A DNA stretch of 64,000 nt, from the NCBI GenBank assembly GCA_963701135.1, contig OY969567.1, forward strand, positions 2,836,554 to 2,900,553. Direction: 5' to 3'. The notes beneath the pieces are model-generated. The model saw nothing but the letters and a program-made list of their open reading frames with translations, was not told the origin of the DNA and searched no databases. This DNA comes from an uncultured Chloroflexia bacterium (lineage in GTDB: Bacteria > Chloroflexota > Dehalococcoidia > DSTF01 > JACRBR01). Below are positions 5,064 to 63,657 of the stretch, piece by piece; positions within the stretch are counted from its first letter, which is position 1; every line of letters starts with the position of its first letter. The translations under genes were made by a program, and so were the position numbers.

Positions 5064-5264
5064 GTCGGTCAGTCCGTCAGTCTTTCAGGGGGTCAGTCTG
5101 TCAGCTGTCAGCTATCAGCTATCAGCTATCAGCTATCAGCTATCAGCGGTGAGTGTGCTCCACACGGCGCGGGCTTTTCAGCCCGCGCTACGGTTTTGTG
5201 TGGGTGCGAGCAAGCGGTTTTGGGCGCGACCAGCTGACAGCTGAGAGCTCGATAGCTGACAGCT
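5064..5264. repeat. composite intergenic element: heptamer array, GC hairpin, inverted heptamer array
   Basis: 5064-5148 holds GTCAGTC/GTCAGCT/ATCAGCT tandem 7-mers (CAGCTAT x5). 5167-5188 is GCGCGGGCTTTTCAGCCCGCGC. 5231-5264 holds the inverted AGCTGAC-type 7-mers. The element lies between two convergent genes. Confidence 0.85.
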
Positions 5265-5907
5265 TCACTCCTTAATCAGCCCCTTCTTGACGGCGTAGGC
5301 GGCGGCCTCGGAGCGGCGGCTGAAGCCGAGCTTCGACAGGATGTGGCTGACGTGGTTGCGGGCGGTGTTCTCGCTGACGACGAGCTTCGCCGCGATCTCC
5401 TTGTTCGTCGCGCCCTCGGCGATCAGCACCAGCACCTCGCGCTCGCGCGCGGTCAGCTCGTCGTCCTCGCCCGCCGCGCGTGCGGCGGCGACGAGCTTCT
5501 CGAGCACGCCCTTCGTCACCTTCGAGTCGAGCAGCGACTCGCCGCGCGCGACCGAGCGCAGCGCCTCGAGCAGGCGCGCGCGGGCGACGTTCTTGAGCAC
5601 GTAGCCGGCCGCGCCCGCGAGCAGCGCCGCGACGACCGTCTCCTCTTCGGCGAACGACGTCAGCATCAGCACGCGCGTCTCCGGCAGCTCGCTGCGCACC
5701 TCGCGGCACGCCTCGATGCCGTCCATGCCGTCCATCCGCACGTCCATCAGCACGATGTCCGGCCGATGCGCGCGCGCCTTCTCGATCGCTTCCTTGCCGT
5801 TGCCGGCCTCGGCGACGACGCGTGAAGTCGGGCTCGACGTCGAGCGCGGCGCGCAGGCCCATCCGCACGACCTCGTGGTCATCGACGATCATCAGCCGCG
5901 TCTTCAT
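5265..5907 (-). pseudogene. NarL/LuxR-family response regulator (one apparent frameshift near 5820)
   Basis: N-terminus MKTRLMIVDDHEVVRMGLRAALDVEPDF is in one frame. VAEAGNGKEAIEKARAHRPDIVLMDVRMDGMDG...LTAREREVLVLIAEGATNKEIAAKL (the LuxR HTH) is in the next frame. A GGAGG RBS precedes ATG 5907. Confidence 0.8.
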
Positions 5908-7697
5908 TCGTCGCCTCCAATCGGCACCGCCACCTCGATGCGCGTGCCGGCGCCCGGCTCGCTGCGCACGTCGAGCGTCCCGTGCAGATCTTCGACGCGC
6001 TGGCGCAGGTTCCCCATGCCGTAGCCGACGCGCGCCGCCCGGCTCCGTCTCGCCGATGCCGACGCCGTCGTCCGCGATGGCGAGCCGCACGGCGCCGTCC
6101 TCGAACGCGAGCGCGATCGTGCACGCTGCGATGCGCGCGCGTGGCGGAAGATGTTGCCCAGCCCCTCCTGCACGATGCGGTAGAGCGCGGCGCTCGTCTC
6201 GATCGGCAGCCGCGCCGGCGCGCCGGTCACCGTCAGCTCGACCGGCATGTCGGCGACGGCCTGGAACTCCTTCACCTGGCCCTGCACGGCGCCGACGAGC
6301 CCTTCGTCGCCGCTCAGCAGCGGCCGCAGGTCGAAGATGTACTGGCGCACTTCCCACAGCGCGTTCTTGGCGAGCGCCGTCAGGTCCTTGCAGACGCTGC
6401 CGCTGCTCGTCCGGGTCGCTGCCGACGCGGTCGATCGCCGTCTCCAGGCTGAGCGACAGCATGTAGACCATCTGCGCGATGCCGTCGTGGATCTCGCGCG
6501 CGATGCGCGCCGCGCTCGCCCTCCGCCGCCAGCTCGCCGATGCGCGTCGGTCAGGCGGATGTTGCGCACGCCGAGCGCGATCTGGCCGGCGACGGCATCG
6601 AGCAGGCGCACCTCGTGCAGGATCGCGCCGGGCGCTCGCGCGTGCCGGCGACGAGCCAGCCCTTCGACCGCGTCGGCCGAGCGCAGCGGCACGACGCCGG
6701 CCCACGCGCAGCCGGCGAACGCGGCGTCGAGCGGCGCGGGCAGCGACGAGGCCGCGTACGTGCGCGCGCCGTCGCGTGTCGAACGCCTCGGCGAGCGCGG
6801 CCGGCTCGGCGGTACGCCATGCACGTCCAGTGCCGTAGGCGTGCGTCTCGCCGCCGCGTCGAGCATCGTCCGGGATCGAGCAGCAGCACGCGCGTCGAAG
6901 CGCGACGCCTCGAGCGCGGCGGCGGCGACGTGCGGCAGCACGTCGTCGAGCCGGCGGCCGCCTTCGAGGAACGCGCGCGCGACGCGGTACAGCAGCTCGC
7001 TGTCGCCGAGCGCGTCGACCGCGTCCTGGCGCGCGGCGTCGAGCTCGCGCAGGACGCTGCCGAGGTAGTTCGGGACGAGCGCGACGAGCAGCGGCGTCAC
7101 CATCGCGCCGATGAAGCTGTTGAGGTTGCTGTCCTTCCAGCCGCCGTAGACGCCCTCGCCGAACGTCGCGAGGCCGAAGACGTAGGCGGCCATGTAGCGC
7201 CGCGCCGAGGACGAGCACGCCGCGGAACGTGAGGAAGAACGCCGGGATGAGCAGCGCGGTGAGCGCGAAGTGGAAGTACGGGCTGCCCCAGCCGCCGCTG
7301 AGGTACACGGCGGTCATCGACAGCGTCAGGTCGATGAGGCCGAGCGCCAGCACGTCGTAGTTCTCCGGCGTGCTCGATGCAGCGGCGCAGGGCGGGCAGC
7401 AGCAGCGGCCGGATCACCGGCACGTAGAACGTCACGACGGCCGTCTGCGATCATCGTGCCGATGAGCAGCCACGGCTCGAAGCGGCGGTTGACCTCCGGC
7501 ACGTCGGCGACGAAGACGATGAGCACGGCGACGAGCCACGCGGCCCAGCGCACGATGAACGGCGACGTGAGCACGGCCAGGCGGATGCCGCCGGGCAGCG
7601 TCGCGAGCGACGTGTCGCCGTGCCGGCGCCAGAAGCTGCGCGGCAGCGTCGCCACGCGCGTGCTGAAGTCTTCGATCGAGGCTTCTATGCGTGCCAC
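5904..7697 (-). pseudogene. sensor histidine kinase (HisKA_3/NarX type, membrane N-terminus, GAF-like middle), several apparent frameshifts
   Basis: H-box IAREIHDGIAQMVYMLS, and ATPase motifs ALYRIVQEGLGNIFRHA and GYGMGNLRQRVEDLHGTLDV, lie in different frames. TM-rich pieces are at 7326..7697 and 7100..7353. The stop overlaps the regulator ATG (ATGA at 5904-5907). Confidence 0.7.
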
Positions 7698-7706
7698 GCC
7701 AGCATT

Positions 7707-7744
7707 ATCAGTTATCAGTTGTCAGTTGTCAGTTTTCAGTTGTC
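7707..7744. repeat. heptamer tandem array (ATCAGTT/GTCAGTT)
   Basis: atcagtt atcagtt gtcagtt gtcagtt ttcagtt gtc. Confidence 0.85.
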
Positions 7745-61793: not shown

Positions 61794-62449
61794 TCGGCGT
61801 CGCCTTCGCCGGCATCGGTTTCCGAAGCGGCGGCGGAGCGCTTGCGGCGGCGCACGACGACCGGCGCGACGAGCGGCTTGCCGGTCATCTCGGCGATCGC
61901 CGATGCGACCTCGCGCACTTCGGCGAGGCCCTGGCGGACCATGGACCGCGGCACGACGATGTCCCCGACCTTCAAGTGCTTCCCGCTCACCTTCACGAGT
62001 ACGATCTCAAGCTGCGCAATGTCCTGTAGCTCACCACGCTGCCGCTCGCGCGTCAACTCCTCGATGCGAATCTGGTCAATTTTCCAGAACGGGACCAGCT
62101 CCGTCGTACCGACGCCCATGCCCAGGAACCCCTGCTGCCAGAGCCCGGACTGCTTCCGCCGGTCGAACACCACGTTGGCGCCGGCGATCGCGTACACGAA
62201 GCCGATGCCCGCGAGCGGGATGCTGACGACCGCCACGACCAGCAGCAGCATGGCCAGGGCGAAGGGCAACCGGTCCAGCCATAGGATTATCGACACGAAC
62301 GCGGCGATGCCGAGCGTCAGCCCGAACAAAGGAAACAGGGCCGCCGCGAGCGCCGGCCGCACGTTGATGCGATCAGGCTCGATGAAGGCGACCCGCCGGT
62401 TCAGGTAGACGATCCGCTTCGCTGGCTTCGCGGGGAGGTCGGCTGCCAT
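61790..62449 (-). CDS. hypothetical membrane protein
   Basis: 219 aa with two long TM helices. Its stop overlaps the GT2 start by 4 nt. Confidence 0.5.
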   Translation of the reverse strand: MAADLPAKPAKRIVYLNRRVAFIEPDRINVRPALAAALFPLFGLTLGIAAFVSIILWLDRLPFALAMLLLVVAVVSIPLAGIGFVYAIAGANVVFDRRKQSGLWQQGFLGMGVGTTELVPFWKIDQIRIEELTRERQRGELQDIAQLEIVLVKVSGKHLKVGDIVVPRSMVRQGLAEVREVASAIAEMTGKPLVAPVVVRRRKRSAAASETDAGEGDAE

Positions 62450-62633
62450 GCCTGTGGATTATAGGCGGCACGCGCCCCTGGGGTTAGCGGGGTGGCGGGA
62501 GGCCAGAGGTCGGAAGTCGGAGGCTGGAACGCGCCGACGCACTGAGCGCCGGGTAGGGGCACGGTGCGCCGTGCTCGCTCCCGCGAGAGCGCGATTTGAC
62601 CCCGCAGGCATCGCCGGGGGTACTCCGGGCGCC

Positions 62634-63590
62634 ATGACCAGCACAGCCGACGATCAACCCACGTGGACGCGCGCCCTGTTCGGCCTCTCCACCGCTGTCT
62701 TCGCCCGGCGCGAAGGCAGCATCTTGATCCTCAAGCGGGCCATCGGTGAGGCCACGGGCGGGTGGTACCTGCCGGGCGGCGCTGTCGAGGCCGGCGAAGA
62801 CATCGAGGCGGCCGCGTGCCGCGAGCTGCTCGAAGAGTCGGGCCTGGCTCCGGCGGGACCGCTCACGCTCATCGGCGTGGCGCGCATCGAGGTGTACGGC
62901 GTCGAGACGCTGCAAGTCGTGTACGCCTGTGACTGCCCTGCCGGCGAAGTCGTGCTCAGCGATGAGCACTCCGGGGCACGCTGGGTCGACGCGCAGCAGT
63001 ACCGCGATCGCTATTTCAACGACAACGTCGTCGCGCTGGTCGAGGCACAGAACAGCCGGCTGGGCGCGCTGATGCGCGCGGTGCGCGACAACATCGACCG
63101 CTACGTGGCGTGGCGCGAGCACGAGTTCCTCGACAGGCAACTGCGCGTGATGCGGCTGTCCGCCGACGTGTTCGTGCTGCGTGACGGCAAGATGCTGCTG
63201 CTGAAGCGCAGCGGCGGCATCGGCGACGGCGTGTGGTACTTGCCGGGCGGCATCGTCGAGGCGGGCGAAGATCCTCGAGACGCCGCCGCGCGCGAGACCT
63301 TCGAGGAGGCCGGGCTGCACATCGGCGAGCCGGAGTTGCTGCGCGTCTGGAACTACCCCGCGCAGAATGACGTCGATGCGTTCCACGCGTCATTTGCGGC
63401 GATCTGTCCCGAGGGCGACGTCGTGCTCAGCCACGAGCACAGCGCCTTCCGCTGGATAGAGCCGATGGAGTACGCGCAGCGCTACTGCGGCGAGCAGGCC
63501 GCCGCCGCGGCGCCACAGTGGACAACGTGGCTCCAGCAGGTCCGCCGCAATTGCGAGCTCGCGACAGAGTGGCTCCGCCGCCAAGCGTGA
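62634..63590 (+). CDS. tandem Nudix hydrolase
   Basis: Start at ATG 62634. Two Nudix boxes: GGAVEAGEDIEAAACRELLEESGL and GGIVEAGEDPRDAAARETFEEAGL. Confidence 0.8.
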   Translation: MTSTADDQPTWTRALFGLSTAVFARREGSILILKRAIGEATGGWYLPGGAVEAGEDIEAAACRELLEESGLAPAGPLTLIGVARIEVYGVETLQVVYACDCPAGEVVLSDEHSGARWVDAQQYRDRYFNDNVVALVEAQNSRLGALMRAVRDNIDRYVAWREHEFLDRQLRVMRLSADVFVLRDGKMLLLKRSGGIGDGVWYLPGGIVEAGEDPRDAAARETFEEAGLHIGEPELLRVWNYPAQNDVDAFHASFAAICPEGDVVLSHEHSAFRWIEPMEYAQRYCGEQAAAAAPQWTTWLQQVRRNCELATEWLRRQA

Positions 63591-63657
63591 TGTCGTTGGC
63601 GCACTGACGCGCCACCACCACCGACCACCCACCAGCGACCATCGACCATCGACCAGA

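Follow-up and report, generated by a model that had tools for sequence, protein, structure and literature searches.

The tandem heptamers of heterocystous cyanobacteria known as short tandemly repeated repetitive (STRR) sequences were reportedly described by Mazel and colleagues in 1990, with units that we take to be CCCCAGT (STRR1), TTGGTCA (STRR2) and CAACAGT (STRR3). Arrays of the same period are the subject of the present analysis. The stretch studied, called the window here, comprises 64,000 nucleotides (C1:2836554-2900553) of a genome that consists of a single contig (3,617,538 bp, 67.9% GC) and belongs to a GC-rich Dehalococcoidia-class lineage of Chloroflexota that is uncultured. Its arrays of tandem heptamers belong securely to the class of bacterial intergenic heptanucleotide simple sequence repeats (SSRs), of the STRR-like kind. 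They are not random microsatellites, their usual length is about four units (28 nt), and their unit families, which are AT-rich, make up a set found across the genus. We hold, with moderate confidence, that they are hairpins and tracts built up by slippage at the 3' ends of transcripts, where they would have a function.

Heptamers are the commonest long SSRs in large, high-GC genomes of non-pathogens, and slippage has been proposed as their origin (Mrazek 2007, as far as it is represented in PMC4679880). An example from the Chloroflexi, (GATAGRA)n in Chloroflexus aurantiacus, is already on record (Subirana and Messeguer 2019, PMC6749651). In Xanthomonas (unit GGGAATC) and Nostoc PCC 7120 (unit GGGGAYT) the repeats prefer four units, are enriched in the spaces separating 'aligned' ORFs (open reading frames), and lie on the sense strand within about 50 bp of the stop; the units contain G-tracts, and G-quadruplexes were offered as the explanation (Rehm et al. 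2015, PMC4692102). The direct TAACTGA repeats known from marine Beggiatoaceae, cyanobacteria and Bacteroidetes are found just upstream of start codons, in 169 direct sets and one indirect set (MacGregor 2015, PMC4679880). The arrays described here have the period of the long heptanucleotide SSRs of the two surveys; polarity, a four-unit mode, inverted-pair hairpins and positional recurrence with unit swapping are not part of those surveys, as far as the portion of Mrazek 2007 represented in PMC4679880 and the text of PMC6749651 go.

The excess of period 7 is large. Tandem Repeats Finder (TRF) reports 38 period-7 rows (1427 bp) in the window, where 30 first-order Markov simulations give 3.4 +/- 1.9 rows (61 bp); at periods 5, 8, 10 and 11 the window itself has 0, 6, 5 and 4 rows. 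Over the whole genome, 925 period-7 rows merge into 885 arrays covering 28 kb, against 37, 260, 246 and 215 rows at the same four other periods. Perfect runs of at least four copies number 131 at lag 7 and between 0 and 5 at every other lag from 4 to 12. Eighty per cent of the period-7 bases fall outside called genes, a compartment that makes up 23% of the genome, while periods 6, 9 and 12 show the reverse pattern, that of coding DNA. The genome-wide comparison of intergenic with coding DNA proposed in the first-pass annotation singles out period 7, and two marks of the heptanucleotide-SSR class, greater length and frequency than chance and intergenic enrichment, are both present. Genes were called with an ad hoc dicodon caller, which is crude; because a period-3 signal persists in the DNA it leaves as 'intergenic', the enrichment values are conservative.

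The individual sites named in that annotation were mostly sound. TRF and direct reading show period-7 arrays at 24 of its 28 starts, and every unit family it named occurs in the window; TRF adds arrays at 20400-20438, 23541-23584, 41021-41047, 55873-55898, 56738-56759 and 59649-59761. Site 9661 has just two or three poor copies, 35905 and 62500 are degenerate, and 5064 and 24592 have an actual period of 4/8 (GTCA). That nearly every intergenic region carries an array was an overstatement: 17-20 of about 37 genuine gaps do so in the window and 465 of 2801 in the genome, and the window lies within a dense zone (2.4-3.6 Mb) at two to three times the average density, with 22-50 arrays per 100 kb, where most of the remaining chromosome has 0-18. 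The zone takes up a third of the chromosome. A link between array density and the replication origin was considered, with dnaA at 3.515 Mb and the minimum of the cumulative GC skew at 3.543 Mb, but the dense zone is asymmetric around both and the GC skew is noisy.

The arrays fall into 181 canonical units, eight of which (AACCTAG, AAACAGC, AACAGAC, AACCAAG, AACTGTG, AGAGAGC, AACCTCC and AACCTAC) account for about 45% of arrays. Intergenic units average 52% GC in a genome of 68% GC; 'arrays' composed of G and C only are mostly coding noise. Within arrays, variation is limited to two adjacent positions (13-32% mismatch, against 0-5% at the remaining five; chi-square p 1e-31 for AACCTAG, 1e-26 for AACCAAG and 1e-24 for AACTGTG), and the unit is therefore a pentamer core (GAACC, AACAG or AACTG) with a 2-nt linker. 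Cores of the GAACC type at exact 7-nt spacing form 51 runs of two, 40 of three, 74 of four, 10 of five and 5 of six, a non-geometric distribution with a sharp mode at four. Runs of AACAG show a plateau up to four units and a drop beyond, and those of GAGGT a long, microsatellite-like tail with a maximum of 23. One 27-mer, GGTTCTTGGTTCCAGGTTCTTGGTTCT, with its variants in fixed order, occurs 7 times exactly, 24 times at up to one mismatch and 66 times at up to two mismatches in the genome, and one to four times in 9 of 40 related genomes.

The resemblance to the Xanthomonas and Nostoc SSRs (PMC4692102) extends to a genome-wide, non-coding distribution, period 7, the preference for four units and stop-proximal placement on the sense strand. 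The differences lie in the units, which are AT-rich (GAACCNN, AACAGNN, AACTGNN), in the presence of many families instead of one, and in the fifth of arrays that occur in inverted pairs. The dominant units AACCTAG, AAACAGC, AACAGAC, AACCAAG and AACTGTG are devoid of GGG, and because most units in this genome have no G-tract, G-quadruplexes cannot be the cause here. Like the cyanobacterial STRR sequences, our arrays are tandem heptanucleotides present in high copy number in non-coding DNA, with several families to a genome; unlike them they occur in another phylum, and hairpin pairs and stop polarity are not defining STRR features. Tandem dimers of STRR1-3, TAACTGA, GGGAATC and GGGGAYT number zero in the genome, so that the arrays are an analogue and not a member by sequence. 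The earlier choice of STRR as nearest analogue is thus apt for the kind of repeat, genome-wide, intergenic and of period 7, and fails for the units, which are absent in tandem, and for the host. The TAACTGA repeats (two to six copies; PMC4679880) are likewise intergenic and polar with respect to genes, the AACTG cores look related, and the minus strand at window positions 7705-7741 reads CAACTGA CAACTGA TAACTGA; our arrays differ from them in favouring stops, in the frequency of inverted pairs and in never having exact TAACTGA in tandem.

Placement relative to genes is strongly biased. Convergent gaps contain 1.62 arrays per kb and co-directional and divergent ones about 0.6, a 2.6-fold difference that bears out the gene-end placement, above all between convergent genes, noted at first. 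Among 700 intergenic arrays, 305 (44%) have a stop-type gene end no more than 25 nt away, and 98 are equally close to a start-type end; arrays before starts have the opposite orientation to those after stops. The 5' and 3' ends of genes, both named in the first-pass annotation, are accordingly not equivalent. Classified by family and by orientation to the flanking genes, as had been suggested, the arrays show family-specific polarity. On the sense strand after stops it amounts to 26:1 for AACAGAC, 17:1 for AACCAAG, 15:3 for AAACAGC, 19:3 for ACAGTTC, 13:1 for AGGTTGT and 10:0 for AGAGAGC. The stops flanking 52946-52988 and 53314-53341 illustrate this: either convergent gene has (AGAACCT)n on its own sense strand. 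A Rho-utilisation-like composition (C over G, unstructured) after stops was tried and rejected, since C exceeds G in 137 arrays and G exceeds C in 154, which is not significant. In 151 arrays A exceeds T and in 130 T exceeds A. These C/G and A/T counts after stops yielded no simple compositional rule behind the polarity, and leave just a mild purine excess.

A second ordered feature is inverted pairing. Neighbouring arrays in the same gap form 63 inverted, 29 direct and 101 unrelated pairs, and the most frequent spacer is 10-20 nt. A stricter search within 200 nt finds an inverted partner for 117 of 558 arrays (21%) and a direct one for 7.5%, with controls at 2.5-6.5%. The pairs keep a constant 5'-X...X'-3' order within each family: AGAACCA precedes GGTTCTT 9:1, ACAGCAA precedes TTTGCTG 7:0, AACAGAC precedes TCTGTTG 6:0, GAGAGCA precedes CTCTGCT 4:0 and AGTTCAC precedes ACTGTGA 4:0. 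Such an order is identical when read from either strand, so that arm order and stop/start polarity express a single asymmetry. Convergent gaps have 17.0 inverted pairs per 100 kb, compared with 5.7 for co-directional and 3.6 for divergent gaps, and the pairs in co-directional gaps are closer to the stop in 23 cases against 12. Loops differ at each locus. Arms that share a locus have a mutual complementarity of 0.924, against 0.844 for arms of one family taken from different loci (perfect in 26% and 7%, respectively; p 0.007).

As RNA, the paired arms fold into hairpins of 20-30 bp. Short pairs reach -42 to -67 kcal/mol with z of -5.9 to -9.7, and the long-range pairs 10708/10957 and 54142/54355 have a fold z of -7.8. 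Single arrays are unstructured as RNA (z -0.3 to +2.2), often with a small GC stem-loop just before the array. The pairs 10708/10957, 54142/54355 and 55805/55873 reported by the first-pass annotation are real, as is their capacity for very stable hairpins, and the window has further pairs at 5101/5231, 19523/20400, 23496/23541, 52946/53314, 56701/56738 and 59600/59649. Pairing at many sites is correct for the window, where more than half of the arrays are paired, and does not carry over to the genome, where about 79% have no inverted partner. The window loci are listed below (1-based window coordinates; basis in brackets).

5101..5147: (TCAGCTA)x6.7, in a convergent gap, where it forms the 5' arm of an inverted pair; preceded by a period-4/8 GTCA tract at 5064-5100 (TRF).
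5231..5264: (CAGCTGA)x4.7, inverted partner of 5101-5147, abutting the stop of the minus-strand gene 5265-5882 (TRF, gene calls).
7705..7741: (TTATCAG/TTGTCAG)x5.3, single, between two minus-strand genes; unstructured as RNA, z +2.2 (TRF, fold).
10708..10805: (AGTTCAC)x14 with a 28-nt higher-order period, touching the start of gene 10220-10714(-) (TRF, fold).
10957..11001: (ACTGTGA)x6.4, perfect, inverted partner of 10708-10805, 3 nt from the stop of gene 11005-11559(-); z -7.8 (TRF, fold).
19523..19586: (AGTTCAC)x9.4, its first 40 nt 100% complementary to 20400-20439, 837 nt apart (TRF).
20353..20439: degenerate (TCAGTCA)x2.7 followed by (AACTGTG)x5.6; with 19523-19586 it brackets gene 19580-20146 and a 130-nt duplicate (TRF).
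23281..23417: (CTCTGCT)x20 with a 40-nt higher-order unit, 96% match (TRF).
23496..23584: hairpin of (AGAACCA)x4.4, 14-nt loop and (CTAGGTT)x6.3; -55.6 kcal/mol, z -7.1 (TRF, fold).
24594..24635: tract of period 4/8 (GTCA / GTCCGTCA) that had been listed as a heptamer (TRF, direct reading).
26288..26314: (ACAGCTA)x3.9, single (TRF).
27309..27337: (AGAACCT)x4.1 in a 52-nt convergent gap, with a small GC hairpin, GCGGC-UGAC-GCCGC, before the array (TRF, fold).
28808..28880: (TCTGTTG)x2.9 and (CCTAAAA)x4.4, unrelated units without a significant fold, z -0.3 (TRF, fold).
35905..35939: degenerate heptad-like units without a TRF call, inside the 3' end of ORF 35842-37509(-) (TRF, direct reading).
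40822..40854: (ACCAGCG)x4.6, to the right of a low-GC island; related (CCAGCGA)x3.9 at 41021-41047 (TRF).
44472..44506: (TGAGAGG)x5.0 (TRF).
47644..47670: (GAGGTTA/GAGGTTG)x3.9, overlapping the stop of gene 47154-47651(+) (TRF, direct reading).
52946..52988: (TAGAACC)x6.1, beginning on the stop codon of gene 52394-52948(+) (TRF, direct reading).
53314..53341: (AGGTTCT)x4.0, its end 7 nt short of the stop of gene 53349-54098(-), AGAACCT on the sense strand (TRF, direct reading).
54142..54209: (GGAGGTT/GGACGTT)x9.7, between divergent genes and upstream of each of their promoters (TRF, fold).
54355..54384: (TCCAACC)x4.3, inverted partner of 54142-54209, just upstream of the conserved purA promoter CTATACT (TRF, comparison).
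55805..55898, plus strand: hairpin of (GAGAGCA)x7.4, 16-nt loop and (TGCTCTC)x3.7, 5 nt after the purA stop; z -6.4 (TRF, fold).
56701..56759, plus strand: hairpin of (AGAGCAG)x3.3, loop and (CTCTGCT)x3.1, about 40 nt after the stop of gene 56213-56659; z -9.7 (TRF, fold).
59600..59761: hairpin of (AGAACCT)x4.1, 20-nt loop and (GGTTCTT)x3.9, then (GGTTCTT)x8.9; z -5.9 (TRF, fold).
63612..63655: (CCACCGA)x6.4 in a convergent gap, with a small GC hairpin, UGGCGC...GCGCCA, before the array (TRF, fold).

Comparison with relatives shows what is conserved and what is replaced. The nearest matches of the genome's aroA are uncultured Dehalococcoidia/Chloroflexota metagenome-assembled genomes (MAGs), at no more than 82% amino-acid identity; contig CAYJMJ010000042, among the closest, is part of G001, which with G002 represents the same genus (G000 denotes the window's own genome and L-numbers denote MAG or metagenome contigs). 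A search for strain-level contigs encoding two window proteins returned none. Samples of G001 and G002 contain the unit families of G000 at 1.3-1.6 arrays per 10 kb, with a mode of about four copies, and more distant family members have other units. In 119 orthologous gaps compared with G001/G002, an array is present in both genomes in 11, in G000 only in 20, in the relative only in 4 and in neither in 84, a co-occurrence with an odds ratio of 11.6 (Fisher p 5e-5). The unit family nevertheless differs in seven of the 11 shared gaps. Two convergent gaps are built alike in both species, running from one stop through a small GC hairpin, a 28-nt 5' arm, a loop and a 3' arm to the other stop, but with different heptads: (GAGAGCA) vs (ACAGCAA) in one, and a mixed (AGAACAG/ACAACAG/AGAGCAG) arm vs (AGAACCA) in the other.

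The surroundings of purA show the same turnover. After its stop, L140 has the GAGAGCA/TGCTCTC family of the window in 4.4/3.4 copies with another loop, L111 has (GGGAACT)4, and plain GC hairpins occur in G001, L011, L131 and L135. Just upstream of the conserved purA promoter, (TCCAACC)4.3 in the window corresponds to (CCAGCCT)3.9 in L124 and (GCGACCA)11 in L126, and the others have nothing. Copy number at orthologous sites differs between relatives as well (GAGAGCA, 7.4 vs 4.4; TCCAACC, 35.6 vs 3.9), and in the stretch syntenic with G001 the intergenic gaps of the window are much the longer. Together, the comparative data indicate that arrays are quickly gained, lost, resized and replaced, yet at preferred places. 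Dense heptamer arrays with their own units (the set includes AGTTTCG, CCAATAT, GCGACCA x11 and AAGGCGG x14) were also seen in an Anaerolineae MAG (L053), an Acidobacteria MAG (L068) and the metagenome contigs L126 and L113. Since arrays occur in other phyla and in distant relatives, the phenomenon is wider than the genus.

Much of this turnover is what functionless microsatellites would show, if slippage simply favours 7-nt units (the proposal of Mrazek 2007, as represented in PMC4679880) and the products are tolerated in non-coding DNA. Exclusion from coding DNA is expected of a period that is not a multiple of three; the copy numbers of some families have long tails (GAGGT runs to 23, TCCAACC to x35.6); the intergenic regions are larger in G000 than in relatives; and both the disparity with G001 in array number (about 10 against 1, considered below) and the swapping of families at shared gaps show that turnover is rapid. 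A passive origin does not, however, predict strand polarity of up to 26:1 at stops, the fixed arm order of inverted pairs, the non-geometric GAACC mode at four units, variation at two of seven positions only, recurrence in orthologous gaps at an odds ratio of 11.6, or the co-variation of arms at the same locus. We regard purely passive repeats as a real but minor chance.

Fixed arm order, co-varying arms, and a position kept while the sequence is replaced are arguments for the maintenance of at least the paired arrays as 3'-end stem-loops. As far as the literature accounts of the class go (PMC4679880, PMC4692102, PMC6749651), such fixed-arm-order hairpin pairs, co-varying arms and positional conservation with sequence replacement have not been described. 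In the model that we favour, replication slippage would lengthen and shorten arrays in 7-nt steps, and arm complementarity would be kept either by selection for pairing or by intrastrand template switching. Arrays would be retained chiefly in the 3' untranslated space of transcription units, where the paired form, as an RNA stem-loop, may terminate transcription, protect the 3' end or insulate convergent genes. Paired arrays would thereby stand in for the plain GC hairpins that relatives have at those positions, and single arrays may be half-elements or proto-hairpins. Homology among dispersed copies may occasionally mediate duplications and insertions.

Several observations weigh against this model. 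About 79% of arrays have no inverted partner and are unstructured as RNA. Eight of the 63 inverted pairs, including 54142/54355 in the window, lie in divergent gaps and are unable to terminate the flanking genes. Paired hairpins provide the stable stem-loop after a stop that an intrinsic terminator has, but lack its free U-tract, their U-rich 3' arms being base-paired. Over the 21 kb of synteny between the window and G001, about 10 arrays in the window stand against a single one in G001, so that many arrays are dispensable. Array-to-stop distances carry some error from the crude gene calls and the apparently indel-rich assembly. Finally, stem function alone cannot explain the core-plus-linker unit, the sharp four-unit mode or the polarity of single arrays. 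On the supporting side, canonical hairpin-plus-U terminators are not enriched in the window: a consensus intrinsic-terminator scan found 7 sites, against 8.5 in shuffles, with no heptad hairpin among the matches. A textbook terminator was observed on the minus strand at 59020-58997 after gene 59062-59355, reading GAAGCCCCC-GAATGG-GGGGGCTTC and then GTTTTAT; with this one good example, canonical terminators are present but rare in the genome. That terminator, and the small GC stem-loops that often adjoin arrays, contradict the initial impression that the arrays are the only terminator-like structures.

The omega repressor of plasmid pSM19035 binds 7-bp heptads. In a reading for which it and the S1/Csp/CsrA-type candidates proposed for the TAACTGA repeats are comparable cases, the arrays would be heptad iterons, in which four 5-nt cores at 7-nt spacing would form a cooperative site for a multimeric DNA- or RNA-binding protein that marks transcript ends. 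The core-plus-linker units, the discrete four-unit GAACC elements, the recurrence of the 27-mer GGTTCTTGGTTCCAGGTTCTTGGTTCT (7 exact, 24 at up to one mismatch) and the family-specific polarity of single arrays without RNA structure all fit such a site, as do the four-unit preference and stop-proximal sense-strand placement of the repeats in Xanthomonas and Nostoc (PMC4692102). Sequence-specific recognition is hard to square with a different family in seven of the 11 shared orthologous gaps unless many proteins are involved, and there are 181 unit types, no candidate protein was identified, and spacing to promoters or start codons is not conserved. Iterons are unlikely on balance; they are kept under consideration because the single arrays, the core-plus-linker unit and the four-unit mode are left unexplained by a stem-loop role. 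A further reading, also unlikely, is that the arrays are no microsatellites but a modular punctuation system in which a site of about 28 nt, made of four 5-nt cores spaced at 7 nt, would be read by a multimeric nucleic-acid-binding factor marking the 3' ends of transcripts, with interchangeable unit families as alternative 'alleles'. If this were true, a single cause other than G-quadruplexes would underlie the unexplained preference for period 7 and for four units in Xanthomonas, Nostoc and further bacteria.

The REP, BIME and REPIN elements of proteobacteria are single imperfect palindromes mobilised by RAYT transposases; they are thought to stabilise mRNA 3' ends and are insertion hot spots. 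Like them, our arrays are short, dispersed, extragenic, hairpin-forming repeats located after stops and between convergent genes. Unlike them, they are heptad arrays whose arms are tandem repeats, with no associated transposase, and the genome has a REP/RAYT pair of its own that is distinct. This consists of a GC-rich palindrome, GCGCGGGCTGAAAAGCCCGCGC, observed in four copies in the window (47700-48000, in the gap before the prephenate dehydrogenase gene) and on both sides of a 167-aa Y1_Tnp (RAYT-like) ORF at genome 2958931-2959431 (within C1:2958850-2959545); palindrome and ORF together look like a classical REP/RAYT pair in a Chloroflexota genome.

Spread of the heptad arrays themselves by a transposase or by hairpin-targeted insertion, in the manner of MITEs or REPINs, would account for identical 27-mers at many loci, and two window loci are suggestive of it. 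The 40-nt arms at 19523-19562 and 20400-20439, 100% complementary and 837 nt apart, enclose gene 19580-20146 (a 188-aa ORF with no Pfam match) and, at 20215-20344, a 130-nt decayed duplicate that is 88% identical to 19394-19523, the 5' end of the neighbouring metallophosphoesterase gene. The hairpins at 55805 and 56701 have the motif ACCCGACC in their loops, and their right flanks agree over about 45 nt, a TATAAT-like box among them. Elsewhere, loops and flanks differ from locus to locus and target-site duplications are absent, on which grounds MITEs or other mobile elements with a conserved interior were rejected; the Y1_Tnp ORF is flanked by GCGCGGGCTGAAAAGCCCGCGC and not by heptads, which disposes of a REP/RAYT identity; and copy number changes in 7-nt steps. 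Mobile elements are thus a very unlikely explanation. The proposal that arrays mark the edges of insertions and duplications applies to these two loci and not to 35905, a weak site; as support for recombination hot spots, two window loci are anecdotes.

The completeness score of the assembly is 65% although the genome is closed in a single contig, and purA, a single 439-aa frame in G001, is represented in the window by two ORFs (54483-54965 and 55083-55799). A groEL-like ORF (33983-35221) was seen to span only positions 199-487 of the Cpn60 profile; for the split purA and this partial ORF, an indel-rich assembly and pseudogenes are the alternatives. Because completeness is low for a closed genome and essential genes are split, the assembly is probably indel-rich. 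The same facts, a single contig only 65% 'complete' and likely indel errors in purA and groEL, could suggest that the arrays are artefacts of error-prone long-read assembly. The same families with a mode of about four copies recur, partly at orthologous sites, in JGI metagenome contigs and in G001 and G002, whose assemblies are independent and built from short reads, and one G001 contig terminates within an array. An artefact is excluded by this indirect evidence to the point of being extremely improbable.

Other repeats and genes of the window were recorded alongside the arrays. Positions 35842-40525 hold a low-GC (0.59) island of four minus-strand genes, encoding an N6/N4 DNA methylase, a ResIII/SF2 helicase, a protein of 263 aa that matches nothing in Pfam and a HATPase_c_3 (GHKL) protein of 555 aa; the island looks like a restriction or defence cassette. 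Two large tandem arrays, at 44505-45232 (units of 242/150/92 nt) and 45724-46403 (69-nt unit x9.8, 92% identity), have a hairpin core CCCCTTCCC...GGGAAGGGG in opposite orientations, with a small ORF between them. At 11596-11776, a tandem repeat with a 33-nt unit (x5.5, 94% identity) is probably coding, since its period is a multiple of three. Rfam and tRNA scans of the window gave no matches.

In many large, GC-rich bacterial genomes no long simple repeat is commoner than the heptanucleotide kind, for which neither the preference for period 7 nor a function is understood. The present lineage is an unusually rich case, with many families per genome, strict polarity at stops, and hairpin pairs that hold their place while their heptads are swapped. 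Its sharp four-unit mode in the absence of G-tracts removes the G-quadruplex explanation offered for Xanthomonas and Nostoc. On the practical side, such arrays interrupt assemblies made from short reads and can lead gene callers astray at 3' ends. Conservation of position and structure with replacement of sequence is evidence that normally points to a structural role in RNA or DNA, and suggests a route by which ordinary terminator hairpins may be rebuilt from slippage-prone repeats.

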